DNA of 51,976 nucleotides from a virus (IMGVR_UViG_3300012909_000006:1-51976); one strand, 5' to 3'. Numbered from the stretch's first letter, positions 18,445 to 50,366 are shown. The notes: generated from the letters alone by a model not told the origin. Program-made: numbers and translations.

Positions 18445-18473
18445 TTGACTATGCGGTACGGATCTCGTATTAC
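18445..18473 (+). promoter_or_regulatory. Sigma70-type promoter of the moron
   Basis: TTGACT-17 nt-TATTAC. Confidence 0.65.
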
Positions 18474-18559: not shown

Positions 18560-19582
18560 ATGACCGTCATCGCCCTCAATCCGCCGTCGCCAAAGAAGTG
18601 GGATCGCGTTCGCGCCAATCCCAAAACACTGGCGATTGCCGTCATCATCGAGCTGATCATCATTGCTGCAGTGATCTTCGCCGCGTTCCAATTCGCGTAT
18701 CGCTATTCCGGTGGCGACAATCTGCAATGGTGGATGGCGATCATCTGCGGCGTGGTTTATGCCGCGGTTGAATGCGCCCGCGTGCCGCTGGCCGTTGTTG
18801 CTGCCACCCATCGGCGCTGGCATGCGCGCTGGCTGGCAATTTTCATGCTGGTGTTCGCTGTCATCATCACCACCAAGAGCCTTTCCCAGGTCGGTGAGCA
18901 GATGTTTTCGCAGCGTCTGGTCGAAGTGATCAGGGCCGATACCGCCTTAAAGACTGCTGAGGCCAATAATGCCGGCACGATTGCCGACCATGCCGCCAAG
19001 ATCGAACGGATCGAAGCGCTCGATGCCGAGATCGCCTCGTTCGGCAACGGCCTGAAAGAATTCGGCAAGGTGCCGGAAGCGAAACAGGTCTGCAGCGTCA
19101 GCTACACCCGTCACGGCCAGAACCGCAGCTGCCGGATGGTGACGCCACCTTGGGCCGGCGCCACGATGCAGCAGCAGCTGGTCGACAGCCGCGCCAAGCG
19201 CAACGCGATGGACGCCGAGATGGCCGCCGCCAGCAAGGCACGCGATGCTGCCACCGCAGCGATTGCCAAAGCGAGAGGCGATCACAACGTCGCGGTGATG
19301 GACAGTCAGCTGCACTCCTTTGCCGGCATGGTGTTCATGAAACCGTCAGCGGACGTCACTGACGGCGAGATCGGCACCATCAAACTGTTCTTTGTGCTGA
19401 TCGGCGCATTGGCCGGAGCGATGACCGCTACGGGCCTGGCCTATTGCAGCTTCACCCGTCACCCCGAACCGAAACCGGCGAAAATCGTGCAGCCCAAGCC
19501 GGTGATTCCGGCCGCCACCATCCTGCCGGCATTGCGTGAACTCGCCACCGAACTCAAACTGGAGAAACGAAATGTCGGATAG
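18560..19582 (+). CDS. Multi-TM membrane protein with periplasmic coiled coil
   Basis: Three N-terminal hydrophobic helices, a long Ala-rich coil, a C-terminal helix. Confidence 0.75.
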   Translation: MTVIALNPPSPKKWDRVRANPKTLAIAVIIELIIIAAVIFAAFQFAYRYSGGDNLQWWMAIICGVVYAAVECARVPLAVVAATHRRWHARWLAIFMLVFAVIITTKSLSQVGEQMFSQRLVEVIRADTALKTAEANNAGTIADHAAKIERIEALDAEIASFGNGLKEFGKVPEAKQVCSVSYTRHGQNRSCRMVTPPWAGATMQQQLVDSRAKRNAMDAEMAAASKARDAATAAIAKARGDHNVAVMDSQLHSFAGMVFMKPSADVTDGEIGTIKLFFVLIGALAGAMTATGLAYCSFTRHPEPKPAKIVQPKPVIPAATILPALRELATELKLEKRNVG

Positions 19583-21375: not shown

Positions 21376-21800
21376 CCCCCCCCCCGGCCGCCGTTTTGGA
21401 ACCGGCTCGGAGGTGAAACCCCCTCCCCCCCCCCTATTCATTCCAGCCAAAACCGGCCGCGCAGACCTAGCGCGCGCGCTCCGTTCGTTCGTTTGATCCG
21501 GCCGCGGACTTGTGAGGACTGAAACGAAACGCGCTCCAGCGCGCTCCTATTGGCTCTTGCGGCGTTGCGGAACTTAAAAGTTAGGCAACGGTTTGCAGAT
21601 CTCGCAATATCAATGGCTTAGCTGTGGCGGAACAACGGTGTTAAACTAAGTTCCATTTGTCGCTGGCTTGTCGCTGTTCCGCTTGATTGTTCCAGCTCGA
21701 TTGTTCCAGCTCGATTATATTTGTTCCCAAAATGGAACCGATGCCGTTAGGCCTTGGAACCGACGGATTAAAACCCGGCTCTTAATCCTGGGAACTTTTG
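21376..21800. repeat. Poly-C tracts, GGAAC/GTTCC pentamer cluster and IHF-consensus site; candidate packaging/terminus site
   Basis: C-runs at about 21376-21385 and 21419-21434; about 10 GGAAC/GTTCC in 21567-21797; TATCAATGGCTTA at 21608-21620. Confidence 0.5.
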
Positions 21801-22264
21801 CCGTTTAGATCCGCGGAATTATTTTCCTGTTCTGGCGCGGCCTCATCCTGTTCTGACGCGGCCTCATGCTCGATTGCCAGCTGTGGCGCCAGTCGCGCGA
21901 TATCGTCCGGGCTTAGGTAATGGTCGACGGGAACCGATATCACGTTAACGGTTCCAATGAATTGCCCTACGTTGCCGGTCACCTGCATTGGGAGAATCTT
22001 TCCCAGCAGTCCCGCAAACGCCTTGGGATGCTTGCCGGCAAGGTGGAAAAGGTAACCGGTCAAACCGTCCTTTCCCTTTCCGTCGGCGCCGTAGGCTTCT
22101 GCAGCGTCGATTATGCCGCGCTTTAAGTCGCGGGTTAGCCGGTTGTGGATTCCCGCGGTCCGCGTCACCGCCGGCTTATGGCCCGGCAAAAACGTTCCGG
22201 GCTTGCGTTCCAGATCTTGCGTCGTGGCGCGCTTGTCGCGGCGTTCAATGCCAAGTTCCGTCAA
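21782..22264 (-). CDS. Putative terminase small subunit
   Basis: NRLTRDLKRGIIDAAE...GLTGYL...HPKAFAGLLGKILP pattern, which I recognise from small-terminase-like phage proteins. Confidence 0.55.
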   Translation of the reverse strand: MTELGIERRDKRATTQDLERKPGTFLPGHKPAVTRTAGIHNRLTRDLKRGIIDAAEAYGADGKGKDGLTGYLFHLAGKHPKAFAGLLGKILPMQVTGNVGQFIGTVNVISVPVDHYLSPDDIARLAPQLAIEHEAASEQDEAAPEQENNSADLNGKSSQD

Positions 22265-22326: not shown

Positions 22327-22351
22327 AAAAAACCCGCCATTACAGCGGGTT
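22327..22351 (-). terminator. Terminator closing cassette 8
   Basis: AACCCGC-7 nt-GCGGGTT stem with a U-run on the minus strand. Confidence 0.7.
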
Positions 22352-22390
22352 ATTCCACATTGCCTATCGCACGGTAAAACTTTGTTCCTG

Positions 22391-22708
22391 TCAACCCCCT
22401 ATTTTGAGGACATTGAGCAATTCGCGGCTTTCGACCAATGCGGCCTCAATGGCCTTAGAGCGCAGCGCGATCACCGCGCGATCGTTCCGACCGTTGCGGA
22501 CGTCACGACGGTCCGAACGGGTGACAATCGTTGCCCGGTCAACCCGGACCGCTTGCGGCTTGTCGCCGTTGAAAAGCACGCCGAGATTCACGCTAGGCCA
22601 TACCATGATCATGGCGCCCGAATTGTTCGTTGCCAGCGCGCTTTCCAGCTCCGCAATGTTGGACTCAATGGTTGCGGTCAAATCGGCTTTTAGGTTGATT
22701 GCGTTCAT
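22391..22708 (-). CDS. Hypothetical protein, cassette 8
   Basis: AAAGGA RBS downstream of the repeat promoter. Confidence 0.7.
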   Translation of the reverse strand: MNAINLKADLTATIESNIAELESALATNNSGAMIMVWPSVNLGVLFNGDKPQAVRVDRATIVTRSDRRDVRNGRNDRAVIALRSKAIEAALVESRELLNVLKIGG

Positions 22709-22740
22709 GGTCCGGTTCCTTTGGTGTGGCGCCGCGGCGC

Positions 22741-22839
22741 CGTTTCGATAAACCAAATCTAGTATGATATACGTATCACGTCAAGCCCGGAACCAAATTT
22801 ATTTTGGCAACAAAAAAGCCCGGCTCAATTGCCGGGCTT
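22741..22839 (-). promoter_or_regulatory. Cassette junction: terminator (22812-22839) plus promoter P8 (divergent copy)
   Basis: Minus strand: GCCCGGC hairpin with T6, then TTGACG-17 nt-TAGATT. Confidence 0.8.
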
Positions 22840-22842
22840 GCT

Positions 22843-23055
22843 TCACTTCTCAACTACATATTTTTGGTTCAAACATTCCGGGCGGTTTTTATGTTGCTGG
22901 CAAAATTGATATCGCGGATAACCGATAAAGTAAGCGCGCGACCATTCTTCCGCATATGACATTCCCGGAACTCTTTCCGGCGCCCGTTGTCCGCCGGCAA
23001 AACCGAACGCCGCAAGAATGAAGCAAACCGCAATAGCGTGAAGCGAAATTTTCAT
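22843..23055 (-). CDS. Small signal-peptide protein, cassette 7
   Basis: MKISLHAIAVCFILAAFGFAG; ATGA overlap. Confidence 0.55.
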   Translation of the reverse strand: MKISLHAIAVCFILAAFGFAGGQRAPERVPGMSYAEEWSRAYFIGYPRYQFCQQHKNRPECLNQKYVVEK

Positions 23056-23273
23056 TTTCCTATTTCCTTTCCCGGCAACCGATAGGCCTGCAATCCCTCA
23101 TGACCCCATGCCGGATCATTCCGCAACGCGTGCAAGCATGAATGCCCGTTCCAGATCCGCGCATCGTACCAATAGATACAAGCAAGGCGATCTTTCCATT
23201 CCCGCCCGTGCTTATAGGCAAAAGCCTGCAACGCCGCGGTTTCATCAGCTGTCAATTCCCGGATCTTAGCCAT
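23052..23273 (-). CDS. Hypothetical protein, cassette 7
   Basis: GGAG RBS; ALQAFAYKHGREWKDRL...LHALRN. Confidence 0.7.
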   Translation of the reverse strand: MAKIRELTADETAALQAFAYKHGREWKDRLACIYWYDARIWNGHSCLHALRNDPAWGHEGLQAYRLPGKEIGK

Positions 23274-23351
23274 TAGCGCGCTCCGCCGTCACAAAAGTTC
23301 CGGACCAGTGCATTCAGGATTGCGTTAATCAGTTTCATTTGCTGTTCCCTT

Positions 23352-23450
23352 CGTTTCGATATCCATTAGTTAGTACGTATCGCGTAACATGTCAAGCGCA
23401 ACCGGGAAACATTTTCAAATAAAAAAAGCCCGGCTAACTTGCCGGGCTTT
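23352..23450 (-). promoter_or_regulatory. Cassette junction: terminator plus repeat promoter P7
   Basis: Core GATATCCATTAGTTAGTACGT 23358-23378; GTCAAG 23391-23396; hairpin 23421-23450. Confidence 0.85.
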
Positions 23451-23453
23451 CGT

Positions 23454-23987
23454 TTACGCTGGCGTCAGATCAAATTTTTCGCCTAGCCATTTAACAAACG
23501 CTTTCGGTTCCTCACCGAGTTCAAACGCTTGCGCCGTTCGTTCCTCATGATCCGTTACCAGATCCGAATAGCACCATTGCCGGCTTGCCTGCATCCTGCA
23601 ATCGTTTTGGAATTCATTGAATAGGTGGCGCCGCGCGACCAATGACGCCACAGCATGCGGCGCCGGCAATTCAATTCCGCCGATTGTTTGCGCGCCGTCA
23701 ACCGGGACATAATCCAAAATCATTGGAATCACTTCCCAGTCATAGGAAATGCCGTCAAAAAAATCCCGGTCATGTTTGGTGCAAATATCGTAAACACTAA
23801 GCGCCCATTGCCCCAATTCAATCGACCAATGGCGCAACTCCGCGGATCCGGTATTTTTTCGCAACGCTTCCCAGTCCGCGCGCGTTGTCGCTCCGCCTAC
23901 GCCTAGCGTCTTATCGTTGATCCATTCCCAGACGCAAAGCGCGGCCTCAACTTCAAGATAGGAAAATTTTGTTTCTTCCGTTTTCAT
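23454..23987 (-). CDS. Hypothetical protein, cassette 6
   Basis: GAGGG RBS before ATG 23987; fills the space from promoter to terminator. Confidence 0.75.
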   Translation of the reverse strand: MKTEETKFSYLEVEAALCVWEWINDKTLGVGGATTRADWEALRKNTGSAELRHWSIELGQWALSVYDICTKHDRDFFDGISYDWEVIPMILDYVPVDGAQTIGGIELPAPHAVASLVARRHLFNEFQNDCRMQASRQWCYSDLVTDHEERTAQAFELGEEPKAFVKWLGEKFDLTPA

Positions 23988-24002
23988 GGTCTCGTTTCCC
24001 TC

Positions 24003-24100
24003 ATTTCGATATCCATTAGTTAGTACGTCTTGCATATCACGTCAAGCCCGGATCCGAAACTTTTGCAAATAAAAAAGCCCGGCTAATTTTGCCGGGCTCT
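24003..24100 (-). promoter_or_regulatory. Cassette junction: terminator plus repeat promoter P6
   Basis: Core 24008-24028; GTCAAG 24041-24046; hairpin 24071-24098. Confidence 0.85.
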
Positions 24101-24109
24101 TTTGCCTCA

Positions 24110-25000
24110 TCATGCCGCTAGCGCTTGCGGCGTTTCGTCCGCGGCCAATACCGCGGATCTCAGATAGTCCGCGGCTTTTTGCGCCGCGCTTGCCGCGGTC
24201 ATGAAAGCCCTTTCATCATCTTTCAAAAGCGAAATCCAGTTAGCGACATAACCGGCATGACGTAATTCGCCGTCAATATTGAACTCCGCGCAAAGGAAAG
24301 CCGCGGCCAATTCCGCGACCAATTCCTCCGCCGCATACGCCTTGTCACCAAACCGCTTTCCGAATTCGCGATTCAAACGATGCTTTGCACCCGTCCAATG
24401 CGCCAGCTCATGAAAGCCGGTTGCGTAGTAATTCGCGGCGCCGTTGAAAGCTTCAAATGCCGGCATGGCAATGAAGTCAGTAGAAGGCGAATAATAAGCC
24501 CGGTCACCGCCGACGTCCGCGCGAAAATCGGCGCCGGTTGCCGCAATGAATTCATCTATGGTCGCGTCCCGTTCATCATCATGCCGCGGCTTGACCGGAT
24601 CCGGATTAACAATCGTTGCCGGCAAGTTTTCGCATTGATCAACGTTGAAAACGGTATAGGCGCGCAGCATGGTAAAGCCCTTACCGGTTTCGCCGGTTTC
24701 CTCATTTTTCTTGCCGGCAATCGGCTTGACGAAATAGACCGTAAAACCATGCTCCCCTTTCCTGACGTTGCCACCCAAGCCTTGCGCTTGCTTGAACGTC
24801 ATAAACCGCGGCGTTGCGAAACGGCCCTGAGATAGCCAAAGCAGCACGACGTTGCAGCCTGAATACGGCCGGCCGGTTGCGGCGTTGTGCGGTATGTTGC
24901 GGCCAGGAGTCGCCGACCATGGCTTGACCCATGGCGCCGTTCCAGTTTCCAGCTCCGCCAAAATTCGCGCCGTCACGTTCTGGTAAAGATTGTTTGCCAT
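24110..25000 (-). CDS. ardC: ArdC-family antirestriction protein (ssDNA-binding N-domain plus zincin-like domain)
   Basis: LYQNVTARILAELETGTAPWVKPW, YSGCN, TFKQA, VRKGE, VFNVDQ, HELAHWTG and YAAEELVAEL motifs. Confidence 0.92.
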   Translation of the reverse strand: MANNLYQNVTARILAELETGTAPWVKPWSATPGRNIPHNAATGRPYSGCNVVLLWLSQGRFATPRFMTFKQAQGLGGNVRKGEHGFTVYFVKPIAGKKNEETGETGKGFTMLRAYTVFNVDQCENLPATIVNPDPVKPRHDDERDATIDEFIAATGADFRADVGGDRAYYSPSTDFIAMPAFEAFNGAANYYATGFHELAHWTGAKHRLNREFGKRFGDKAYAAEELVAELAAAFLCAEFNIDGELRHAGYVANWISLLKDDERAFMTAASAAQKAADYLRSAVLAADETPQALAA

Positions 25001-25020
25001 TTGCAAAACCCTCGTTTGCT

Positions 25021-25130
25021 TGTTTCGATATCCATTAGTTAGTACGTATAGCGTAACACGTCAAGCGCAAACCGGACTGGAACCGGAATTATTTTCAGGC
25101 ATAAAAAAAACCCGGCTAAGCCGGGCTCTT
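25021..25130 (-). promoter_or_regulatory. Cassette junction: terminator plus repeat promoter P5
   Basis: Core 25027-25047; GTCAAG 25060-25065; hairpin 25103-25125. Confidence 0.85.
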
Positions 25131-25136
25131 TTCAGA

Positions 25137-25550
25137 TCATGCCGCTAACGGCATTGCTTCGCGCCAGCGTTCCAGCTCTTGCGCTTCGCGCTTGCGCTTG
25201 TCTGCCATTGCCGCGTCATACAATCGGCGCCACTCCGCCGGCTTGCGCGCGCGTCGCTCCGCGCTAGGCGCCGCTAGCAACGCCGCGCGCTGCTTTGCCT
25301 GCATTGCCTTGTGAATTGCGGCGCCGTCATTGTGATTTGTCCCGCTAGCGCAGCTGCAATTATGCGAAGTGAAAACGCGTTGCAGCTCCGCGCGCTGCTT
25401 TGCCCTAATAGCGGTTTCAACGGCCAAGCCATAGGCCTGACGTTCCGCGCGCGGCATAGCAGATAAGCCATTGCGCGCGGCCTTGCGATGCTTTGCCATG
25501 CCGGCCAGCTCCGGATAAACCGGGCCAAATTGTTCCGGTGCCATTTTCAT
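25137..25550 (-). CDS. Basic hypothetical protein, cassette 4
   Basis: ATGA overlap with the upstream gene; ends just before the terminator. Confidence 0.6.
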   Translation of the reverse strand: MKMAPEQFGPVYPELAGMAKHRKAARNGLSAMPRAERQAYGLAVETAIRAKQRAELQRVFTSHNCSCASGTNHNDGAAIHKAMQAKQRAALLAAPSAERRARKPAEWRRLYDAAMADKRKREAQELERWREAMPLAA

Positions 25551-25909
25551 TTGGTATATTCCAAAACTTTCGGAAACTTTGCCATGGCAAGCTTGCACGT
25601 CATGCTCGGATCTTTTTTGTATTCCACTTCGAATTCCATCTGACTCGACATGAACGTGATAGTCGGGGCATTGACGGTTTCGACGTCGACGCCCAATGTT
25701 TTCAGCGATGAAAGCACAACCTTTAGCGCGCTAGGCTGAATCGTCAGATTGTCACACTTGCGCATAGCGGCAACAACTGTTCCCATGTTTTCAATAGCCT
25801 CAGTTTTTTGACTATTGCTAAGATCATTCTTTCCGCCGGCATTTGCCATGCAAATACCGGAACCGAAAAAACCCGCAACCACGATAGCAGTAAGACAAGC
25901 GCGTTTCAT
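25547..25909 (-). CDS. Secreted small protein, cassette 4
   Basis: GGAG RBS; signal peptide ending ANA; two Cys in the mature part. Confidence 0.7.
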   Translation of the reverse strand: MKRACLTAIVVAGFFGSGICMANAGGKNDLSNSQKTEAIENMGTVVAAMRKCDNLTIQPSALKVVLSSLKTLGVDVETVNAPTITFMSSQMEFEVEYKKDPSMTCKLAMAKFPKVLEYTK

Positions 25910-25941
25910 TTTTCATTCTCCGATTAGGTGCGGCCTCGCCG

Positions 25942-26046
25942 CGTTTCGATATCCATTAGTTAGTACGTATCCTGTACTAAGTCAAGCGCAATCGGGAAAT
26001 AAAAAAGCCCGGCTAAGCCGGGCTTTCGGATCCGGCTAAGCCGGGC
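25942..26046 (-). promoter_or_regulatory. Cassette junction: double hairpin/terminator plus repeat promoter P4
   Basis: Core 25948-25968; GTCAAG 25981-25986; CCGGCTAAGCCGG occurs twice. Confidence 0.85.
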
Positions 26047-26047
26047 T

Positions 26048-26575
26048 CTATGCGTTTGCGCGCCTATCCTCCGCCATACGTTGATAGCTTGCATCATTCG
26101 GAACGCCGCGGATCATTCGCGCAGAATTATTCGGGCAAACCTGATTCTCCAGTTCATACGTAAAATATTTTCCGTTCCGGCTAACCCGCAATAGCAGCGC
26201 GTCAGCATGCAAACCAGCGTCCGCAATATAACCGTTTGTGTGATAGTCCGGATGAAAGCAGAACGCAATTTCATCGCCAGCGCGAAGTGTTTTCAGAATG
26301 CTTGAAACCGGCGTATGTTGATCATGATAAATCGAAACCAATTCAAAGCATGACGCGGCGCCGCGCTCCAGCGCGTCACGTCCGCGCGTCGTTTCCAGTC
26401 GCGTCTCGCAATTTTCCAGCTTATACTCTTGATCCGTTTCAAATGGCGCCGCGTTGTATTTCTTGCGCTTGATAAGCGCAACCCGGCCGGCCGGATAAGC
26501 CGGCGTATTGAGATGGATGGAAATTTGATCCGCCTTGCGAATAGCGGCAATGTCCGTTTTGGTAAGAGCAGGCAT
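26048..26575 (-). CDS. Hypothetical protein, cassette 3
   Basis: GAGGG RBS before ATG 26575. Confidence 0.75.
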   Translation of the reverse strand: MPALTKTDIAAIRKADQISIHLNTPAYPAGRVALIKRKKYNAAPFETDQEYKLENCETRLETTRGRDALERGAASCFELVSIYHDQHTPVSSILKTLRAGDEIAFCFHPDYHTNGYIADAGLHADALLLRVSRNGKYFTYELENQVCPNNSARMIRGVPNDASYQRMAEDRRANA

Positions 26576-26604
26576 TTTGAATTCCCTCGTTAGCGCCGCG
26601 GCGC

Positions 26605-26689
26605 CGTTTCTGATATCCATTAGTTAGTACGTCATGCATATCATGTCAAGCGCGACAGAACAAAATAAAACCCGCGTTAGCGGGTTTTT
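26605..26689 (-). promoter_or_regulatory. Cassette junction: terminator plus repeat promoter P3
   Basis: Core 26612-26632; GTCAAG 26645-26650; AAAACCCGC-gtta-GCGGGTTTT. Confidence 0.85.
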
Positions 26690-26832
26690 GTTTTCGGTTG
26701 ATACGGCTCAAAATAGTGTTGGCCTATTTCCTCGCCTAGCGTCTTGCCGGCATACCTGACGCTAGGCCTGTCTCCTGCAATCAACGCGCCGCAAACGATG
26801 CAAATAGCAATTAGATGGATAATGGCTTTCAT
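26677..26832 (-). CDS. Small signal-peptide protein, cassette 2
   Basis: MKAIIHLIAICIVCGALIAG; ATGA overlap; resembles 22843-23055. Confidence 0.5.
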   Translation of the reverse strand: MKAIIHLIAICIVCGALIAGDRPSVRYAGKTLGEEIGQHYFEPYQPKTKTR

Positions 26833-27059
26833 TTCGGAAAGCCTTTCGACGCGGCGAATTCCCAAGCCTCAGCCTCCGATTCAAAAACCGGAAATTTCAT
26901 TTCGACCAATTCACCCGCGGCATTGTAGAACGAACGTTGCCCCATGACTGCCGCGCGCGACGCTGGCGCCTCCGTTCCCAATTCACCGGGAATAGATCCG
27001 ACAAAGCCAAACTTGCCGGACGGAAACTTGATAACGTGCAATCCCATCTTGCCGAACAT
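26829..27059 (-). CDS. Hypothetical protein, cassette 2
   Basis: Tight packing; KFPSGKFGFVGSIP...FESEAEA. Confidence 0.65.
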   Translation of the reverse strand: MFGKMGLHVIKFPSGKFGFVGSIPGELGTEAPASRAAVMGQRSFYNAAGELVEMKFPVFESEAEAWEFAASKGFPK

Positions 27060-27060
27060 G

Positions 27061-27717
27061 TTAAAACCTTTCGCCGTTTTCTATGAATTCGTATTGGTTT
27101 GCCTCGATTGTTTCCGCAACCTGTTCATCGCTGTTCTGGTAATTGTATTCCGCCTCCAGCGCGCGATAAATCCAGTCCGCGAAACCGCGCAACGTGTCAC
27201 GCAATGCGGTTTCATCCTCTTGCGTCACTTCCCTGTCATCGCCGTCCGCGTCAACCGCGCTAGCGTCAACCTGCATCATGCCGCTATGGCTGTAATTGCC
27301 ACGATGCAAACTGACCGTTGCCGCTAGGCGCCGGTCATACTTGACCTGCAATGCATCCAGCTCCGCCGCAATAGCGTGCAAGCCCTCATCCGTCGGCGCA
27401 TACGCTTTGACACGTTCCAGCGCGGATCCGGTTTCGAACGAAACCAAATTTCCCTCAAAACTGGCGCCGTCACCTTGCGACCAAAACCCGGACCAATTGA
27501 TAGCCGGGACTTGCCGGACCTTGCCGCTAACGGTTTTAACGTCCCGTTGTTTGATCTCGATTCCCAGGAGTCCGGCAATCCGCTCCGCGTCCTCAATGAC
27601 GAATTCCGAAAACGAATTGTCACCCGCGTCCGCTTCGCGGTACCAATCGCGCGCTTTGACTTTCGCCGCGTCGCTCAACTCGCCGTATTGATAAACTTTG
27701 GTTTCAACGACTCTCAT
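27061..27717 (-). CDS. Acidic protein of a family seen in ICE/plasmid leading regions (often annotated 'antitoxin of toxin-antitoxin stability system')
   Basis: VYQYGELSDAAKVKARDWY, WSGFWSQGDGASF, ADWIYRALEAEY and IEANQYEF motifs. Confidence 0.7.
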   Translation of the reverse strand: MRVVETKVYQYGELSDAAKVKARDWYREADAGDNSFSEFVIEDAERIAGLLGIEIKQRDVKTVSGKVRQVPAINWSGFWSQGDGASFEGNLVSFETGSALERVKAYAPTDEGLHAIAAELDALQVKYDRRLAATVSLHRGNYSHSGMMQVDASAVDADGDDREVTQEDETALRDTLRGFADWIYRALEAEYNYQNSDEQVAETIEANQYEFIENGERF

Positions 27718-28031
27718 CGGTCCGACTCCCTCGCAATTTTTTCGCAGGCATACCAGACCATAAGATTCTTGAATTGATCCAGCCCGGAAAGCATATCCGC
27801 GCGACCGAAACCGCTAATCATTTCGGCAACGTTTTTGCAGCCCATTTCTTCCGCGTCCTCGACTGCCATATCCCAAATTTCATCGCCGAACGCGTCAAAA
27901 ATTTCGACCGTATCGCGAGTGTAAGTAATATGCGGATAACCCGCGTCCGCACCATGCCGCGCAATGTCCCGCGCGTTTTCGTCCAAATTGGCTTTGAACC
28001 AAGCCTTGAACGTTGTTTCTGTGATAGCCAT
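27714..28031 (-). CDS. Small acidic protein, possible DNA mimic
   Basis: DIARHGADAGYPHITY...FKNLMVWYACE; Asp/Glu-rich. Confidence 0.7.
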   Translation of the reverse strand: MAITETTFKAWFKANLDENARDIARHGADAGYPHITYTRDTVEIFDAFGDEIWDMAVEDAEEMGCKNVAEMISGFGRADMLSGLDQFKNLMVWYACEKIARESDR

Positions 28032-28050
28032 AACCAAAGCCTCGTTTCGT

Positions 28051-28147
28051 TGTTTCGATATCCATTAGTTAGTACGTCTTGCGTAACAAGTCAAGCGCAA
28101 TCGTTGCCAACATTCAAAAGAAAAAAGCCCGATCTAAACCGGGCTTT
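28051..28147 (-). promoter_or_regulatory. Cassette junction: terminator plus repeat promoter P2
   Basis: Core 28057-28077; GTCAAG 28090-28095; hairpin 28121-28147. Confidence 0.85.
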
Positions 28148-28376
28148 CAATCAATGCGGTATAGGTCGAACAATCCGCGGCCAATACGCCAAACTGCCGC
28201 GCGTCATGCCAGCTCATAAAACCAGCGTCCTCGCAATCTACAATCGATCCGCCTAACCATTTCGCGAATTGATCCGCCGCGGCGATTTCAGAATCTTCCA
28301 TGCCGCTACTATCGCCGTTGATGAAATAGGACGCCCAATAACTCGGCGCCGTTCCAGTGATAGATTCCAAAGCCAT
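28134..28376 (-). CDS. Small acidic protein, cassette 1
   Basis: AAGGAG RBS; PSYWASYFINGDSSGM motif. Confidence 0.7.
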   Translation of the reverse strand: MALESITGTAPSYWASYFINGDSSGMEDSEIAAADQFAKWLGGSIVDCEDAGFMSWHDARQFGVLAADCSTYTALIESPV

Positions 28377-28389
28377 TTTGTTTCGCTCC

Positions 28390-28782
28390 TTAATCGCCGA
28401 TATAGGCATACCATTTGCCGTCATCGCCCTTATAGAGCGATCCGGAAACGCTACCCTGTTCTGCAGCTGCCAAATATTTCTCATCGGAGTCGAAACGTTC
28501 CATTTGCCGGATCCAACTCGCAACCTCTTGCGTTACCAGCGCGTTCAATTCCAGATCCGACCATGCCGCTATCTCATCTGCGGACCATGCGCCAAATCCC
28601 TTGAAATAACGCCGCGCATTGTCGCGCATTGTGTCATCCGTCAAAAGCAAATGCTCCGCGGCATAGGCTTTCGAATTGTTCCAAGTAATTTTAGCGGCGT
28701 CCGGACCTAGCTCCGCCTGACTTCCTGACATAATCGGACAATCGTCCGCGTCATCGATCATATGTGTAACGTCAAGTTCCAT
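28390..28782 (-). CDS. Acidic hypothetical protein, cassette 1
   Basis: AGGA RBS; SGSQAELG...TWNNS...FGAWSADEI. Confidence 0.75.
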   Translation of the reverse strand: MELDVTHMIDDADDCPIMSGSQAELGPDAAKITWNNSKAYAAEHLLLTDDTMRDNARRYFKGFGAWSADEIAAWSDLELNALVTQEVASWIRQMERFDSDEKYLAAAEQGSVSGSLYKGDDGKWYAYIGD

Positions 28783-28800
28783 TGTCCTGTTTCCCTTGTT

Positions 28801-28865
28801 TTGATAGGCCTGAGTTAGTACGCCTAATGTACTAAGTCAAGCGCAATCGTCAAAATTATTTTTGC
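28801..28865 (-). promoter_or_regulatory. Repeat promoter P1, first of the array
   Basis: Minus strand TTGACT-17 nt-TAACTC containing TTAGTAC-N7-GTACTAA. Confidence 0.8.
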
Positions 28866-29165
28866 CCTTTCGAATCTTTTCTCTTGACCTGTTACGTATG
28901 GCGTACTAGAACAGATCCAACGCCGCGGGAAATGGTTTCCGCCGACAAGTCGAAAGGCTCCAAATGATAACCAAAACTTTTGAACCGCTCCGACCATTGG
29001 TCGCGCCAGACAACGGCTCCGCCTTCTATCATGTTGGAGTTTTCGGCCAGCAGCGCGTCCACTACGGTGAAAGCCATTGGCCAAGCCGCAGCTACTGGCT
29101 AGTTCCCGGATCCGGGGACTAGCACCGGCCCCCGCGGCCCACCGCCCGGCGGCGGTCCCGCTCGA

Positions 29166-29306
29166 CCGATGGGCTCCGGGGTACGTGGGCTCCGGGGTAC
29201 GCGCACGCTCCGGGATACCGATGGGCTCCGGGGTACGCACGCTCCGGGGTACCGATGGGCTCCGGGGTACCGATGGGCTCCGGGGTACGGCTGCGCTCCA
29301 GGGTAC
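29166..29306. repeat. Tandem array A: 8 x GCTCCGGGGTAC, period 16-18 bp
   Basis: Copies at 29173, 29189, 29207, 29225, 29241, 29259, 29277, 29295 (two have one mismatch). Confidence 0.9.
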
Positions 29307-29589
29307 ACCGCTGTCACGGCGCCGCGTCTGGATCGCTACGCAGATCTTCACTAACCTCAAACAAATCCGCTTGTCGCGCCTCACGCACAATCTCAATCTG
29401 CCACTGATGCCTGGCGCAATATTCCCACACCCGCAGCCTGGACCAGCCTTTCAAGAAACGCAGGATCGGCGCGGTCTCCCGCACTACGTCATTGATCATC
29501 ACAATGCCAGCCGCAAACTTTCGATTGCGGATCTGAACCAGGGTCTCGCTCGCATTGATTTCCTGCATCCAAATTTTTTCAGATCAGGG

Positions 29590-29748
29590 TACCACCTGGG
29601 TTTCGAGGGGGTGTCACCCTGGTTTCGGGGGTGTCACCTGGGTTTCGGGGTGTCACCCTGGTTTCGGGGGTGTCGCCTGGGTTTCGGCATGTCACCTTGG
29701 TTTCGGGGGTGTCGCCTGGGTTTCAGCCAGGGGTATCACCTGGGATTT
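29590..29748. repeat. Tandem array B: about 7-8 x CRCCYKGGTTTCGGGG(G)TGT, period about 20 bp
   Basis: Read directly at 29593-29748. Confidence 0.9.
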
Positions 29749-30312
29749 TGCCCTCGATGCCGGTTGCGATGATGTCGGTTGCGATTTTGCCTTTGGTTTC
29801 GAACTCCACCATCCGACAAGCGTCTGTAATCCATTACGCAACGCATCCAATTCATCAACACCGATCGCCGCCTGATCCTGCTCGCACACCGCCCGCACCA
29901 TCCGCTCCGCCGCCGCACCCGTCAGCTGCAGCGCACGCCGCGCGCCAACATAATCATCGATCACCCGCGCATGCCGGCGCGCTTCCCTCAACCCCTTGAT
30001 GCTGTCCGGATCCGGCGCCGTGCCACCGCTCGGATCCAGCCGCGCCGTCTGCGGCAACTTTGGTCCGTGACACGCCGCGCTGTACTCACTGACCAACGTC
30101 GCCCAGCGCTTGCCCGCCGAATACTGCAGCGGCGAAATTTTTTCATCCATGTGCAGCCGCCCCAACATCGTCCCCCACTCCGCCGGCCGGCACCCTGCCA
30201 GCACCAGATCGCGCACCCGCCGCGTCTCCGACGGTGGCGGCAACGCCACATGCGTCTTGATGCTGATCCGCCCGGAAGGCTTGCGCATCGCCATAGGTTT
30301 GCGTCGTGACAT
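29692..30312 (-). CDS. Conserved alphaproteobacterial phage protein, possible late-gene regulator
   Basis: RKPSGRIS...WGTMLGRLH...ISPLQYSAGKRW; last gene of the replication operon; AGGAG RBS. Confidence 0.55.
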   Translation of the reverse strand: MSRRKPMAMRKPSGRISIKTHVALPPPSETRRVRDLVLAGCRPAEWGTMLGRLHMDEKISPLQYSAGKRWATLVSEYSAACHGPKLPQTARLDPSGGTAPDPDSIKGLREARRHARVIDDYVGARRALQLTGAAAERMVRAVCEQDQAAIGVDELDALRNGLQTLVGWWSSKPKAKSQPTSSQPASRAKSQVIPLAETQATPPKPR

Positions 30313-39350: not shown

Positions 39351-39664
39351 GCCGCCATCTCCGTCAGCCGGTCGATGACGGCGCCGCCTATGCTTTGGGC
39401 ATGGCCCTGGCTGTCGCGGGTCAGCGCGTGCTGAATGGTCTGCAGCTGCACGCCATGCTGCAGCGCCAGTGACAGCACGATGGCGAAGTCACGGGCAATC
39501 GCCTGGATCTGCTCGCCGCTCTTGCCGCCGGTAATGAAAACCTCGCCGATCGACCCGTCGTCATAGAAACCGACATCGACGACGTGGTTGCCAGCTAGGC
39601 CACCGAACGATATTTCGAAACGTTCACAGCCACGGCGATCGGGTAACGCACAACGTGCTGTCAT
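39347..39664 (-). CDS. TSCPD-domain protein (class II RNR C-terminal-like)
   Basis: LPDRR...GFYDDGSIGEVFI..GKSG...AIVLSLALQHGV. Confidence 0.8.
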   Translation of the reverse strand: MTARCALPDRRGCERFEISFGGLAGNHVVDVGFYDDGSIGEVFITGGKSGEQIQAIARDFAIVLSLALQHGVQLQTIQHALTRDSQGHAQSIGGAVIDRLTEMAA

Positions 39665-40185
39665 TGCCGTACCTTTCGTGACAGATGGAAATGCCCCAGG
39701 CAGTAGCGTGAGCCTTCGATCTGCGGCCGGCCGCAGAATTGATATGGGTACTCGCCGTCGCACGGGAATCGGCACTCACCCTTGCGCAACGCCAGCACCG
39801 GCAGGTTGGCAACGCGCAAAGCGTGCCGCGGCAGTTCTGACTTCGGCAGCAATGGGGTGATCGGTGTCGTCCGCAGCAACAGCGGCAACGGCTTTGAAAA
39901 CTTCGGCGCGAAGCGATCGTAACCGATGCGCTCATGCGCCGGCTTAGCGCGACTCTTGCGCGGCTTGCGCGGCATCGGCTCGGTCGGCTTGCGTCGCGGC
40001 AACGCCAGGCGCCGCGCTTTGCCGATGCATTGATTCTTGGTCAGCTTGATACGGAATTCATCGGCGAGCGTTCGCGCGATTACGGTGTAGCCGTGGCCGC
40101 TCTGATGGAGTTCGGTCAGGCGTTCCGTCAAACCCGATTTGCTGAACCAGACCGCATTGCGTGAATTATGTTCGGAGTGAACCAT
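39661..40185 (-). CDS. gcrA: GcrA-family cell-cycle regulator homolog
   Basis: L..L...G.....IA..L...TKNQCIGKARRL N-domain; CRFP...FCG.P...SRYC..H C-domain. Confidence 0.88.
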   Translation of the reverse strand: MVHSEHNSRNAVWFSKSGLTERLTELHQSGHGYTVIARTLADEFRIKLTKNQCIGKARRLALPRRKPTEPMPRKPRKSRAKPAHERIGYDRFAPKFSKPLPLLLRTTPITPLLPKSELPRHALRVANLPVLALRKGECRFPCDGEYPYQFCGRPQIEGSRYCLGHFHLSRKVRQ

Positions 40186-40341: not shown

Positions 40342-40590
40342 TTACGCGGCGCGTCGTTTAGAAGGCTTCTGAAAACCACGCATTTTCCATAGGTGCGGCG
40401 GCGCGGTGTATCCGCGCTTGGCCAATTCCTTGATCATCAGGGCGTAGGTATTTGCCGGAAACGCTTCGAACGAATGTAGCCAGTTCCATACCGCGGGATC
40501 TTTAGCCTCGGTCAGCTCCCCGACCTTTTCGGGACCGCCCAAAACTTCAATAATTTCCGCGGCCTTTGTCAGGCTTGTCAGTTTTTTCAT
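40342..40590 (-). CDS. Cro-like regulator
   Basis: IIEVLGGPEKVGELT....AVWNW....FP; divergent from the XRE repressor. Confidence 0.75.
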   Translation of the reverse strand: MKKLTSLTKAAEIIEVLGGPEKVGELTEAKDPAVWNWLHSFEAFPANTYALMIKELAKRGYTAPPHLWKMRGFQKPSKRRAA

Positions 40591-40619
40591 CACACGGTTA
40601 CCCTGGTGAGGACAACCAT

Positions 40620-40810
40620 CGTGCTCCAAAATTCCTTTGGAAGTCAAGCCTACCTAATAAGCCAGCTCAAAAATTTCTTTGGAACGAATTATGAACGTCA
40701 ATCAACATTACCGTGACAGGACTCTAAGTTTGAGTTAGCGACTAGCCTTCAAAATAATTTTGGAAAACGCCAATTTGGCGTTGACCAAATCAGAATTTTT
40801 ATGCAATTTT
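40620..40810. promoter_or_regulatory. Lysis-lysogeny switch: divergent promoters and three operators
   Basis: YCAAA-N5-TTTGG at 40626-40640, 40668-40682 and 40749-40763; TTGACT on minus at 40647-40642; TTGACC on plus at 40781. Confidence 0.75.
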
Positions 40811-40816
40811 CGGTTT

Positions 40817-41113
40817 ATGGCTGACGAACTTCTCATTACTGAAAACGAACTTGAAGCGATCCGTCGCAGGCTTATCGCAATTCGCAGATTCGTGACTGGT
40901 GACAATCAGTCTGAGTTCGCGCGAAAGCTCGAAATTCATCCCAACCGCTGGAATAACATCGAGCGCGGTTCACCGCTCACCCTGCGGTTGGCAATGCAGA
41001 TTGAAAAGCAAACTGGTTTGCCGATCGAATATACGATCTTCGGGCAGACTATTCGGCTGACGCCAGCCAAGCGGCGTCAGCTGGCAGAGCTTGAGCGTTC
41101 CTGGAATAAGTGA
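40817..41113 (+). CDS. CI-like XRE repressor without a peptidase domain
   Basis: NQSEFARKLEIHPNRWNNIERG HTH; only 98 aa. Confidence 0.8.
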   Translation: MADELLITENELEAIRRRLIAIRRFVTGDNQSEFARKLEIHPNRWNNIERGSPLTLRLAMQIEKQTGLPIEYTIFGQTIRLTPAKRRQLAELERSWNK

Positions 41114-46690: not shown

Positions 46691-46894
46691 TTGAGCGGGC
46701 CAGTGATCAAGGACGATGTCGAACGCGCCCTACGTTTTGTGGCGCATCTCATCGTAGATCGCGGCATGGTTGAATATCTGCCATTACTGGAACGGATAGA
46801 ACGAGACTATCGCAAATTCGAAACGGGAGAAATGCGCGATCCTATTGCAAAGGCTCGCGCTGTTCTCGATGCACTGGATCAGAAGGCAAGTTGA
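46691..46894 (+). CDS. Hypothetical protein at the excisionase position
   Basis: Last gene of the operon, converging on the integrase. Confidence 0.45.
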   Translation: MSGPVIKDDVERALRFVAHLIVDRGMVEYLPLLERIERDYRKFETGEMRDPIAKARAVLDALDQKAS

Positions 46895-48222
46895 TTCATG
46901 ACCGGCAAGGTGAAATCAACATCTTTGAATCCATAGTCTTCCTTTTTAGGATTGTGCCCCATCAGGTAATCGATGGTTTCCTGATGCGTGCCTTTGGTGC
47001 GCAGCAAGCGGTCCTTGAAGGTGTGCCGCAGGCAATACAGTGTTTTCTTTTCTTCATCCGGCACATCCGGCTGCAGGCCACGCAGCCAGTTATTGATTTG
47101 CAGCCGAACATATTCGTGGTTCTCGCGGAATTGCGGGAAGCCATTTGGATTGCGCTTCATCGCTTCAAGCGCGACACCAACCAACGGGATCTTACGTTCT
47201 GAGAATTTGTTCTTGATTGCCCGACCGTTGCCGGCGCGGATATCCAGATAGGGAATGTCCGTATCGATGTGAACGTCATCGTTTGGCGTGCGGATGATTT
47301 CTGATGGACGTGCGCCCGTGTCGATGCAAACCAGCACAAGGTCATGGATTTTTGAATCAAGATCGTTCGGCTTTGCCAGCATTCGCTGGCGCACAAAGTC
47401 GATAGCAAACGGCATGCGCTTGCCTTGTGCCTGATCAAATGGATTTTTGCGGTGGTACAGCTGAATCGGTTTGCCATCTGGTCGCATCAATTGACGTTCG
47501 TCGACAACGTCGCGCACCATTTTAGTCAGGAAGGCGAATTGCTGGCGCGCTGTTTCCATGCCCTTGCCTTCTTCCTCAATGTACTCCATGCAATCGTCAA
47601 CGAACTGGCGACCGTCGGCCGAAGTCAACGTTGCAATGTCTTTGTCGCCAATCGATGTGATTAGCCGAGCGACCGCAAGGTTGCGGACTTGTCGCCAGCG
47701 GGCGAGTTCAGGTTTACCTTTCTTGTCCGCAGTCAATGTTTTTCGTATCTGGGGGATGACCTCAAAAGCCTCTCGCAGTTCTGACAACAAAACCGTCTTC
47801 TCGGGTGGGGGGTCGCCACCGAGTGCACCGCGGATATCATCTATGTTGGTTGGGTCACCCTTCGGCTGTTCCGCAGCCAGGACATTGATGCGAGGATAAA
47901 ACTGCGCATCGGGCAGCTTCATAACATCCTCTCGCGACAGATACTGGAGACCCATCCTCATGGCGGCCTTTATGCCTGCCTGCAAATCCCGATAGGCGTC
48001 GGCGGTGGTCCGGCCACGCAATAGATCTGCCCAGTAGTGATTTTGTTCTTGGTCAATACGCGCAGCGATACGGCCGGCCCGCCTACCGTGTTCGTCATCG
48101 TCAACCATGATTTTGGTGGTCCGGCGAACGATGCCTCTCTTGTCGAGATGGGCAACGTCGGTGGGGACTCGACGGTTGTAATACCACCAGCCGCTGAGCT
48201 GGATCAGATGATTGCGGGCCAT
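46879..48222 (-). CDS. int: Tyrosine integrase
   Basis: TGARPSEI (R), IKN (K), YCLRH, LMGH, DYG (Y); N-terminal YYNRRVP arm-binding-type domain; GGAAGG RBS before ATG 48222. Confidence 0.92.
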   Translation of the reverse strand: MARNHLIQLSGWWYYNRRVPTDVAHLDKRGIVRRTTKIMVDDDEHGRRAGRIAARIDQEQNHYWADLLRGRTTADAYRDLQAGIKAAMRMGLQYLSREDVMKLPDAQFYPRINVLAAEQPKGDPTNIDDIRGALGGDPPPEKTVLLSELREAFEVIPQIRKTLTADKKGKPELARWRQVRNLAVARLITSIGDKDIATLTSADGRQFVDDCMEYIEEEGKGMETARQQFAFLTKMVRDVVDERQLMRPDGKPIQLYHRKNPFDQAQGKRMPFAIDFVRQRMLAKPNDLDSKIHDLVLVCIDTGARPSEIIRTPNDDVHIDTDIPYLDIRAGNGRAIKNKFSERKIPLVGVALEAMKRNPNGFPQFRENHEYVRLQINNWLRGLQPDVPDEEKKTLYCLRHTFKDRLLRTKGTHQETIDYLMGHNPKKEDYGFKDVDFTLPVMNQLAF

Positions 48223-48294
48223 TGACCTTCCGTTTTCAAAATTATTTTGAAACCAGAACATGGCAGCGAATCGTCGAAATCACAAGAGGTTTGG

Positions 48295-48500: not shown

Positions 48501-48579
48501 AATTCTTTTGATTTTTCTTCTGCTTTGAGGCTGTCATTGAATTGAACGGGGGTGCATGCGCAAGAGGGAGAATCGGTCA

Positions 48580-48912
48580 ATGGCCACCGATAACACCGCC
48601 CAGATGTTCATCGACGGCGCCATGATGCAGCTCAGCGAGACGCCGGAACAAAACCCATGGGCCCGCATCAGCGAGATCGCTGCCCAGCTCGGCGTCAGGC
48701 CGGCCCAGCCGGGCAAGGCGACCATCCTGGCGCCCGGCGCTGACGGTGAGGCCTATGACGTCTGGGAAGTCTGTAGCGCCTTCCTGGCGCGGATGGACCT
48801 GGTAGCCCGCCTCGACCGGGTGGACGCCGCCCTGGCCGGCCAGCTCAGTCGGTCGATGACCGAGAATGCCCGGCTCAAGATCGAGCTGGCCAAAACACGT
48901 CAATCTACTTGA
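48580..48912 (+). CDS. Hypothetical protein
   Basis: GGGAG RBS; coding-like codon usage. Confidence 0.6.
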   Translation: MATDNTAQMFIDGAMMQLSETPEQNPWARISEIAAQLGVRPAQPGKATILAPGADGEAYDVWEVCSAFLARMDLVARLDRVDAALAGQLSRSMTENARLKIELAKTRQST

Positions 48913-49312
48913 CCTTATAGATCTTCCCGAGCGCGAGACCGGCCGTCACGATCGCCTTGCGGATATTTTTGTACTGCCGAGATTTCAGGCGCGCGGCGAT
49001 GTAATCCGTGTTGCGTGCATAGCGACGGTGGCGCGGCTCAGCGAGGATCCCGACATTGCACAGCGTTCTGACCGCCCGGCGGACGTTGGTCGGCGGGATG
49101 CCTGTTTCTTTGGCTATCTCGTTGACTGGTTTTGGATTGAGCATCGAATCCTCGCGCCACAGCACAAAGGCGACGATCAGCTGCTCGTACACGGCACCGG
49201 GGTGCTTATTCTTATCACCATAGTCTTCGTGCATGTTTTTTATCACCGTCAGCATCATTGTTGAAACAATAACCGATTGCTGAATGAGGTCGTTCAACTC
49301 TTTAGCTGGCAT
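48905..49312 (-). CDS. Winged-HTH regulator
   Basis: VNEIAKETGIPPTNVRRAVRTL...G; GGAGG RBS. Confidence 0.7.
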   Translation of the reverse strand: MPAKELNDLIQQSVIVSTMMLTVIKNMHEDYGDKNKHPGAVYEQLIVAFVLWREDSMLNPKPVNEIAKETGIPPTNVRRAVRTLCNVGILAEPRHRRYARNTDYIAARLKSRQYKNIRKAIVTAGLALGKIYKVK

Positions 49313-49530
49313 TCCATCCTCCCGACGCGCGTTTGATCTACGCGTTGCATTCACGATCACTTCACGATGGGATAACGCTGTTCATTTTCGCCGGCTTATG
49401 TTCGGTTGCCGACTTTTCCTTGTCCCTGTCAGGTTACCAGCTACCAAAATTATTTTGAAGTCGAGCAACCTTCATGGTACTCATTACGTTGATCATACCT
49501 TCTCCTGGTGTCTGATCTAAATCAAAACCT

Positions 49531-49863: not shown

Positions 49864-49880
49864 GTCTGGCATACTGCCCC

Positions 49881-49909
49881 TTGACGTAATACGTATCATG
49901 CTCTATATT
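49881..49909 (+). promoter_or_regulatory. Sigma70 promoter related to the cassette promoters
   Basis: TTGACG-17 nt-TATATT; first 16 nt match P8 at 15 of 16 positions. Confidence 0.7.
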
Positions 49910-49950
49910 CCCTCACAGCATTCAAGCTTTTGAAAAGGAAGATATTTACC

Positions 49951-50256
49951 ATGGCTAGAAGTCGAAGCGACCATCCCGGCAAGGTACTGCTGGAAGATTA
50001 CATGACCCCGTTCAACCTGTCGGCCAACGCCCTGGCACGGGAACTGGGAGTGCCGCCCAACCGAATCAGTTCAATCGTCAACGGCTCCCGTTCGATCACC
50101 GCCGACAGCGCGCTGCGCCTGGCGCGGTACTTCCGGACCACGCCGGAATTCTGGCTGCACATGCAGAACGATTACGAGCTGGCGGTGGCGCGTGCCGAAG
50201 CCGGCAAGCAGATCACCGCCGACGTCCGGCCGTCCAAGGAAGTCGAAGCGGCGTAG
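49951..50256 (+). CDS. higA: HigA-family antitoxin/regulator (orphan)
   Basis: HPGKVLLEDY...SANALARELGVPPNRISSIVNG.RSITADSALRLARYF.TTPEFWL.MQ..Y. Confidence 0.9.
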   Translation: MARSRSDHPGKVLLEDYMTPFNLSANALARELGVPPNRISSIVNGSRSITADSALRLARYFRTTPEFWLHMQNDYELAVARAEAGKQITADVRPSKEVEAA

Positions 50257-50325
50257 TTGGCGCCTCACCTGCGCGACGACAAAGACCCCAGCCCCCTTGT
50301 AGTGGTGCGGGGAGGCTGACCAGAA

Positions 50326-50366
50326 GGGCCACGCTCTTGAATGGAGCGTGGTCCTTTTGGTTTTTT
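50326..50366. terminator. Terminator between convergent genes
   Basis: CCACGCTC-7 nt-GAGCGTGG followed by T-rich sequence. Confidence 0.6.

Follow-up and report, generated by a model that had tools for sequence, protein, structure and literature searches.

The DNA considered here is the virus record IMGVR_UViG_3300012909_000006:1-51976 (G000; linear, 52 kb, 74% complete), whose whole length is called the window. Between a gene that we take to be terS from its position and a motif (21782-22264; function unknown according to PHROGs) and an open reading frame (ORF) at 29692-30312, it carries an array of short promoter-gene-terminator cassettes with an ardC gene among the cargo. The candidate regulator of the array is an orphan HigA-family antitoxin. 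Coordinates are collected in Table 1.

The cassette array and its operator

An earlier, sequence-only reading was built on the 21-mer GATATCCATTAGTTAGTACGT, and its account of that repeat is accurate: there are six exact copies (23358, 24008, 25027, 25948, 26612 and 28057), with no extra match when as many as 3 mismatches are allowed and none in any of 100 shuffles, and GTCAA lies 12 nt after all six and after both degenerate copies (22747 and 28803). On the minus strand each of the eight junctions reads TTGAC(A/G/T), 17 nt, then TAACTA, TAACTC or TAGATT; a purine-rich ribosome-binding site, one to four genes and a GC hairpin with a T run follow each promoter, as described. The eight leftward units hold 15 genes, including one ORF of 21 amino acids (aa). 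The count of eight units stands for the leftward ones, but a ninth, divergent unit at 28884(+) had been overlooked. Likewise, a hairpin does precede each next promoter, but the last one (22331-22351) belongs to a separate promoter-terminator element. By raw number the terminators do not exceed chance (16 in the region, 13 ± 4 in shuffled sequence); only their placement just ahead of the next promoters is telling. A consensus promoter scanner called none of the eight promoters at this register, because it requires a T at −7, which the −10 elements of the array lack. Such elements are usual in alphaproteobacterial sigma-70 promoters (PMC8407463). Terminator and promoter together make up a composite repeat of about 100 bp that flanks ORFans (repeat family D2; 105 nt, 5 copies).

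Alignment of the junctions exposed a feature absent from the first reading: all nine promoters share a 19-bp palindrome, TAGTAC-N7-GTACTA, directly after TTGACN and perfect in P1 and P4 (the box, below). The left half matches TAGTAC at 38 of 54 positions, with 1-26 matches at neighboring offsets (right half excepted). The nine operators score 16.8-21.1 bits (16.1-20.5 with each left out in turn), vs 12.2 for the next best site in the window. The palindrome covers the spacer and the −10 element, and its symmetry is retained in 32 sites while the central 5 nt vary freely. When the −35 element is included in the matrix, the highest-scoring non-array site, 49880(+), immediately precedes the HigA-family gene.

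An orphan HigA and the higBA promoter

The phage HigA matches TIGR02607 at 104.1 bits, vs a curated cut-off of 47.7; its relatives in the PDB are VapI, PaHigA and GraA. Its promoter stands directly ahead of the gene with no higB upstream, and HigB (PF05015) is found neither in the window, at its 74% completeness, nor in a complete relative, G001. The HigA of G001 is 61% identical and also lies behind an in-register box. The own box of higA scores 4.8 bits in the window and 14.1 in G001, with the array boxes at 16.4-25.5. Joint presence of higA and box was judged in these two phages, out of three sequences with a large array (the third is the contig k87-115675).

The link to toxin-antitoxin (TA) operons comes from metagenomes, scanned with a pattern built solely from array promoters. 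The scan reported 83 stretches, which reduce to 77 distinct loci; array phages account for 13 of them, leaving 64. A HigA match lies downstream on the same strand at 31 of these 64, and upstream at none; counting truncated ones, 38 are starts of higBA operons, with 20 distinct HigB proteins at <80% identity. Of 20 first ORFs from these operons that were compared with Pfam, 19 match HigB, 17 of them above the cut-off, and the HigB-like ORF mostly starts 9-18 nt after the box. The phage HigA has a helix reading SANxLA..VPPNRI, and the box-linked HigAs share the pattern SANxLA..VP[PA][NT]R. In a tree the phage HigAs form a clade (support 100/99) nested in a larger one (97/91) with five box-linked higBA HigAs. 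A reverse test took 12 of 30 listed plasmid HigA matches, chosen by protein similarity across taxa: only two, from Rhodovastum and Methylobacterium, had a strong box (0/200 shuffles), both with the SAN..VP[PA]NR helix. Therefore, the box marks a HigA subfamily and not the whole family.

Three side observations belong here. At the metagenome higBA loci L047-L123, the HigB start about 10 nt after the box would imply leaderless mRNAs. Several array promoters carry ATC(A/G)A where a higB start would fall, perhaps a trace of one. On the conjugative Azotobacter plasmid pAcX50c (L200), a HigA without an annotated toxin adjoins a gene for a zincin-like metallopeptidase (ArdC-type domain); no box was found there.

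Related phages and cassette exchange

Relatives were sought with a degenerate promoter pattern over viral contigs and metagenomes. G001, a complete 75-kb phage, has 11 leftward promoters and one divergent promoter at the same genomic place, and three further box promoters outside the array, ahead of HigA, a serine resolvase and two small ORFs. The metagenome contig k87-115675 has 10+1 promoters; nine fragments were found besides, several of them near-identical to G001. The occurrence of the same array in G001 and k87-115675 is independent support against misassembly; run X1, in which one contig covers the whole stretch at even depth, may itself be the source of the stretch.

The suggestion that cassettes are exchanged is supported: cargo differs in content and order among the three near-complete arrays. 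They hold about 26 cargo families, of which seven are common to all three (one misframed k87 ORF was corrected by a tblastn match before counting). Gene c6 has been relocated, whole cassettes gained or lost, and single genes swapped within cassettes; thus not every swap falls at a repeat. In one fragment (L094), ArdA lies behind a box promoter (E 4.6e-33). A serine resolvase-like gene of G001 (G001:C1:35651-36337, minus strand) lies behind a strong box promoter; a recombinase regulated in this way might be relevant to the exchange of cassettes. In run X4, eight joints near promoter/terminator junctions, with sides of 25-62 letters and 80% likeness, were not counted.

The array is dispensable, to judge from its deletion in the provirus G004, a close relative in replication genes (exonuclease 83%, primase 61%): there the counterpart of the ORF at 29695 is followed by a 3' remnant of c7b and then by the promoter-terminator ahead of terS. 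Other searches delimit the array's distribution. Of the 33 capsid-relative loci, 19, for the most part those with longer records, were examined for HigA and boxes: HigA was present in 0/19, and one had a single 2-mismatch pattern match, at control level; the five that are at least 90% complete had neither HigA nor box promoters. No other TTGAC-anchored repeat array was found in the relatives without HigA, a test that repeats without TTGAC would escape, and looser arrays were found at none of 17 single-hit loci. The exact 20-mer had 0 matches in viral contigs; the array-specific pattern had one unrelated match in genome contigs, and no GTDB representative has that exact form. A related-locus search started from the ORF at 29695 and from c1a returned nothing although relatives exist, and so misses cases here. 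A HigA search of the viral contigs returned G001, two array-less higBA pairs and one unrelated helix-turn-helix (HTH) protein, which does not show wider use of the design among other phage families.

Proposed mechanism

The locus is probably a nine-cassette accessory array on higBA-type operators, with the orphan HigA as likely master repressor and a brief burst of cargo expression on entry. Co-regulation, as originally proposed, is supported by the common operator and the candidate repressor; the first reading named neither operator nor regulator, and the evidence favors the orphan HigA 21 kb away over an ArdK/ArdR- or EGeRS-type element. The HigA antitoxin is the most likely regulator, its binding being predicted from the sites and the protein family. 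We infer immediate-early timing for the array.

In this perspective, phage DNA would enter a cell that lacks this HigA, and host sigma-70 polymerase would fire all the promoters without any phage factor; the terminators would keep cassette transcripts short and insulated. Meanwhile higA would be transcribed from its own near-consensus promoter, until HigA dimers cover spacer and −10 and shut off the array; the weaker own box of higA would set repressor level and burst length. That weak box fits the model drawn for the plasmid regulon Reg576, although decay or chance could also give it. A lysogen would keep the array silent independently of CI. Antitoxins tend to be labile (PMC12266136), so the array could be reopened by proteolysis or by replication of the genome. 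Recombination between the terminator-promoter repeats of roughly 100 bp would swap cassettes, and the remaining cargo may counter host defense or condition the host, as ArdC and ArdA do. As a rule, the DNA end packaged last enters first; if packaging starts at terS, the array, lying just upstream, would be near that end.

A further step, on which we are evenly divided, supposes that a higBA circuit was captured, its toxin dropped and its promoter-operator multiplied to 9-14 copies, leaving the antitoxin as a CI-independent timer of a shuffled counter-defense library.

Alternative explanations

Several observations weigh against HigA control of a counter-defense array. The own box of higA in the window is outside the top six non-array sites by the operator matrix. 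At 26 of the 64 non-array motif loci there is no higBA, but, among others, XRE and PadR regulators, uncharacterized genes or contig ends; therefore, the palindrome is not exclusive to HigA. HigA was found at 0/37 unrelated loci of the viral scan, and ten of the 12 plasmid HigA loci lack a significant box (in one of the ten a variant, TAAC/GTTA, occupies the equivalent offset). The HigA-positive array phages, the window and G001, are kin and not independent events, and an HTH gene (50365-50770) and a winged-HTH gene (51172-51843) co-occur with the array just as HigA does. Restriction-site avoidance is not seen in the array (palindromic hexamers, observed/expected 1.18 vs 0.98). The label of anti-defense-type cargo given at first holds for ArdC, but is shown for only 1 of 16 window genes.

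The two HTH genes lead to an unlikely variant, in which one of them encodes the repressor, the entry-burst logic is the same and the resemblance to higBA operators arose by convergence. Both are present in G001 (62% and 69%) and missing from box-less relatives, the motif also lies ahead of XRE and PadR genes at some loci, and the higA box of the window is weak; but neither gene has a box ahead of it, whereas higA is boxed in both phages, 38 of the 64 motif loci are higBA, and homologs of a third neighboring HTH (50775-51179) occur in G007 and G009, which lack boxes. Another perspective locates the regulator in the host: a resident HigA or HigBA would read the boxes, so that the array reports host TA state or stress, and the phage HigA would serve chiefly as counter-defense, neutralizing HigB or silencing host higBA. 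This is quite unlikely, although the box is a bacterial higBA operator, the closest named HigAs are in Bradyrhizobium genomes and orphan antitoxins have been proposed as anti-addiction or counter-defense factors (PMC7354431, PMC11541004). Array and phage HigA appear and vanish together; the HigAs from Bradyrhizobium group within the phage clade, and prophages may be their source; and dependence on a patchy host TA pair would presumably leave the array unregulated in most hosts. A counter-defense role of the phage HigA can coexist with the repressor role.

Control by the immunity repressor would make the array an ordinary lytic early or host-takeover module, similar to those of SPO1 and phiC31, held by CI and on at infection and induction. 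A second palindrome, CAAAATWATTTTG, is found at 40627, 40668, 40750, 48237, 49445, 51923 and 51943, with exact, dispersed copies at 40750, 48237, 49445 and 51923; its sites include the cro/cI switch, the 5' end of int and both flanks of the likely att region, and it is probably the operator of CI, present at scattered places in the genome. Its variant CAAAATTATTTTTG (28851), between P1 and P9, and the dispersed exact copies speak for CI; the variant is possibly a second control layer in this phage only. However, the seven internal promoters, behind terminators, have no such palindrome; the array operator differs from the immunity-region palindrome, and the array box is missing from the cro/cI region. 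The boxes are retained in G001, whose immunity region is unrelated: neither a match to the window's cI nor a CI-type palindrome is present there. Thus CI is not the common factor, and this explanation is very unlikely. We also think it highly improbable that the cassettes are stacked morons that the lysogen expresses, for superinfection exclusion or host conversion, with the palindrome serving as an activator site or having arisen incidentally when promoters were duplicated. The array does lie between a putative late regulator and a late promoter-terminator, a usual location of morons; c2d, c7c and c4a have membrane- or signal-peptide-like N-termini; and GC content at third codon positions is low in array genes, 0.52-0.63 vs 0.76-0.78 in primase, terL and capsid genes (higA, 0.79). 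Set against this, the palindrome lies over spacer and −10, a repressor position; its symmetry is maintained across sites with a free center; ArdC and ArdA are families that serve incoming DNA; and the provirus relative G004 has lost the array.

Cargo genes and genomic setting

The cargo includes ArdC, as first reported (Pfam ArdcN E 2.9e-36, MPTase E 3.3e-48; phrog_7245 E 5e-90); the domain layout, ArdcN plus zincin-like MPTase, is present and anti-restriction activity is predicted. ArdC and ArdA are both known anti-defense families. None of the remaining window cargo could be assigned to a functional family with Pfam, PHROGs, NCBIfam or PADLOC (the last with 0/15 cargo and moron proteins). 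Five cargo proteins are acidic (c1a, c1b, c2a, c2b and c6, pI 4.05-4.7), but the tail sheath is acidic too (4.8), so acidity by itself says little. DNA mimicry of the Ocr/ArdA kind is possible for c1a and c2b, which are acidic (pI 4.3 and 4.5) and had no PDB match by Foldseek. One member of the c2b family is named 'antitoxin of toxin-antitoxin stability system' by NCBI (name unverified). Predicted models of c2b and c1a (predicted local distance difference test scores 94.6 and 95.3) had no clear match in the PDB with Foldseek, which does not establish new folds; structural matches of c2b were uncharacterized phage proteins only, the best VIA match having Z 5.5, root-mean-square deviation 3.9 and 101 aligned residues. 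In the ESM Atlas c6 had no usable match and c3 only leads under 0.85. Two matches were taken as noise: an AlkZ-like one for c1a, below cut-off, and a PHROG match of a G001 cargo gene labeled Shiga toxin A (42 residues, E 0.002). A 61-aa frame at 28892-29077 (−) is antisense to the 52-aa P9 gene; its conservation probably reflects the plus-strand gene.

Table 1. Features of the window, in window coordinates
Feature	Position	Strand	Remarks
P9, ninth, divergent promoter	28884..28912	+	TTGACC-17-TAGAAC; operator 28890-28908; in 3/3 full arrays
ORF behind P9	28964..29122	+	52 aa; conserved in G001, other gene in its place in k87
CI-type palindrome variant CAAAATTATTTTTG	28851..28864		between P1 and P9
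P1	28812..28840	-	TTGACT-17-TAACTC; perfect operator TAGTAC-N7-GTACTA 28816-28834
c1a	28390..28782	-	130 aa, acidic, pI 4.3; in 3/3 full arrays
c1b	28134..28376	-	80 aa, acidic; weak DUF6926
T1, intrinsic-terminator-like hairpin	28123..28148	-	
P2 promoter	28066..28094	-	operator 28070-28088
c2a	27714..28031	-	105 aa, acidic, DUF7222
c2b	27061..27717	-	218 aa, acidic, pI 4.5; large family, 1283 matches
c2c	26829..27059	-	76 aa
c2d	26677..26865	-	51-62 aa; N-terminus hydrophobic; related to c7c
T2, terminator-like hairpin	26667..26688	-	
P3 promoter	26621..26649	-	operator 26625-26643
c3	26048..26575	-	175 aa; 94-96% identity where relatives have it; missing from k87
T3, terminator-like hairpin	26003..26027	-	
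P4 promoter	25957..25985	-	perfect operator 25961-25979
c4a	25547..25909	-	120 aa, N-terminus signal-peptide-like; absent from other two full arrays
c4b	25137..25550	-	137 aa, basic; immediately precedes ardC in 6/6 loci with both
T4, terminator-like hairpin	25105..25130	-	listed on + by the hairpin scan
P5 promoter	25036..25064	-	operator 25040-25058
ArdC anti-restriction family protein	24110..25000	-	296 aa, ArdcN + MPTase-PolyVal
T5, terminator-like hairpin	24070..24100	-	listed on + by the hairpin scan
P6 promoter	24017..24045	-	operator 24021-24039
c6	23454..23987	-	177 aa, acidic; other location in k87 array
T6, terminator-like hairpin	23424..23451	-	
P7 promoter	23367..23395	-	operator 23371-23389
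c7a, c7b, c7c	22843..23338	-	c7a 21 aa; c7b 73 aa, 23052-23273; c7c 70 aa, 22843-23055
T7, terminator-like hairpin	22816..22839	-	
P8 promoter	22756..22784	-	TTGACG-17-TAGATT; operator 22760-22778
c8	22391..22708	-	105 aa
Promoter + terminator element ahead of terS-like gene	22331..22394	-	TTGACA-17-TGCGAT, then hairpin; no box
Further box promoter	18445..18473	+	box 18454-18472 inside TTGACT-17-TATTAC
higA promoter	49881..49909	+	TTGACG-17-TATATT; weak box TAATAC-N7-GCTCTA, same register
Orphan HigA-family antitoxin	49951..50256	+	101 aa; proposed master repressor

By its gene content the window comes from a temperate myovirus, with an HK97-type head, Mu-like tail genes and an integrase, of about 70-75 kb. 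The left side carries HK97-type portal, protease and capsid, terminase, tail sheath and baseplate hub genes; the right side carries a primase, an exonuclease, GcrA, a cro/cI-like switch (40342-41113) and the integrase (46879-48261). The host is likely Bradyrhizobium or a near relative, because the best named homologs of HigA (72% and 66% identity), c2b (52%) and c1a (55%) are from Bradyrhizobium. INPHARED contains no close relative (primase 21-23%; DNA matches are short pieces only). A tenth good box, at 18454-18472, precedes a 340-aa membrane/coiled-coil protein (18560-19582) in the block of morons that separates terS from terL. A box at the equivalent place in G001 (72269) and in k87 indicates that the regulon may reach past the array.

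The promoter-terminator element ahead of terS is retained in array-less G004, and appears to be a late-promoter/terminator pair that also ends cassette 8. It resembles a lambdoid late promoter, a type that needs antitermination past a closely following terminator; the basic ORF 29692-30312 is a candidate regulator. Upstream of the array are two tandem repeat tracts, 29134-29324 and 29586-29747 (an 18-nt unit and an alternating 19/20-nt unit), which may be packaging signals or iterons of a replication origin; a similar tract occurs in G001, judged from ORF translations. The GcrA cell-cycle regulator homolog (39661-40185, minus strand; E 3.5e-12) also has a counterpart in G001. Beyond the integrase, 48556-51843 holds six HTH-type or HTH-like regulator genes; higA and those at 50365, 50775 and 51172 are conserved in G001.

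Relation to known systems

The general design is known from Reg576 of plasmid p576 and from the PeSL elements of T4-like phages: the array works like the former and is built like the latter, but is a member of neither, nor of the HigBA modules. The analogy to plasmid establishment, drawn from the start, gains from the common operator with its candidate repressor, the variable cargo and the ArdA behind the same promoter. Reg576 and the EGeRS regulons of the pLS20 family similarly comprise several units, ardC and variable genes (PMC6294495, PMC8708921). In Reg576 an element-encoded repressor represses its own promoter less tightly, and expression is transient after entry (PMC6294495); the array likewise has several units on one operator together with an ard gene. 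The differences are an inverted-repeat operator and a predicted HTH antitoxin, instead of a ribbon-helix-helix protein on dual TTATCCC direct repeats, and a tailed temperate phage with predicted regulation, instead of a conjugative plasmid with regulation shown by experiment.

PeSL are repeats of about 100 bp, each a terminator with a sigma70 promoter, among non-essential ORFans that are shuffled (PMC2839356, PMC4122927); the array has the same composite repeat, with genes gained, lost and reordered. PeSL, however, lie in hyperplastic regions of lytic T4-like phages, whereas the array phage is HK97-type, with a Mu-like tail, and temperate. The main text of the PeSL paper (PMC2839356) uses neither the word repressor nor the word operator. 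PeSL mini-circles have been shown (PMC2839356, PMC4122927); the array is known here from assembled contigs alone.

The HigBA and GraTA modules are autoregulated in the manner proposed here, by a HigA-family HTH protein at a palindromic operator over the promoter (PMC12266136, PMC6987408). HigA of Rts1 contacts TGTA (PMC12266136), and the array half-site includes CGTA, a likeness in the contact motif. In Pseudomonas aeruginosa, HigA also represses mvfR, outside its own operon; its palindrome, TTAACGTTAA, differs from that of the array (PMC6987408). Unlike HigBA modules, the array has no toxin gene, and the promoter-operator occurs in 9-12 copies, ahead of foreign cargo, 21 kb from the antitoxin. 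Plasmid leading-region islands resemble the array in their clusters of anti-restriction and uncharacterized genes, and orphan antitoxins are over-represented there (PMC11541004); but the array lacks oriT and Frpo single-strand promoters, and the orphan antitoxins of leading regions have been read as counter-defense (PMC11541004).

The early region of phiC31 and the host-takeover module of SPO1 share with the array early genes in many short units with repeated promoters, but the array operator is distinct from the CI-type site. The early genes of phiC31 are under its immunity repressor; SPO1 has no lysogeny. On pKM101, CUP repeats with ArdK/ArdR control anti-restriction genes. No family of that name appeared in the Pfam, PHROGs and NCBIfam results, in which CUP and ArdK/ArdR sequences were not themselves compared. 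A search of the literature, in which subscription journals are poorly covered, found, among the papers listed, no report of an orphan or co-opted HigA as phage repressor, nor one of an antitoxin-derived repressor with an amplified TA promoter.

Implications

Phages and plasmid leading regions often carry orphan antitoxins, which are usually taken as debris or as toxin neutralizers. The array suggests a third, testable role: timer of an entry regulon made from an amplified toxin-antitoxin promoter. The central claim reduces to one 101-aa protein and one 19-bp site. The roughly 26 cargo families, ArdC and ArdA included, are good candidate defense inhibitors in the Alphaproteobacteria, because they stand under one regulatory signal. 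If the capture scenario is true, the same HigA could also silence or neutralize host higBA; on mobile elements in general, timing of establishment may often be what orphan antitoxins do, and anti-defense genes could then be mined by way of the boxes.

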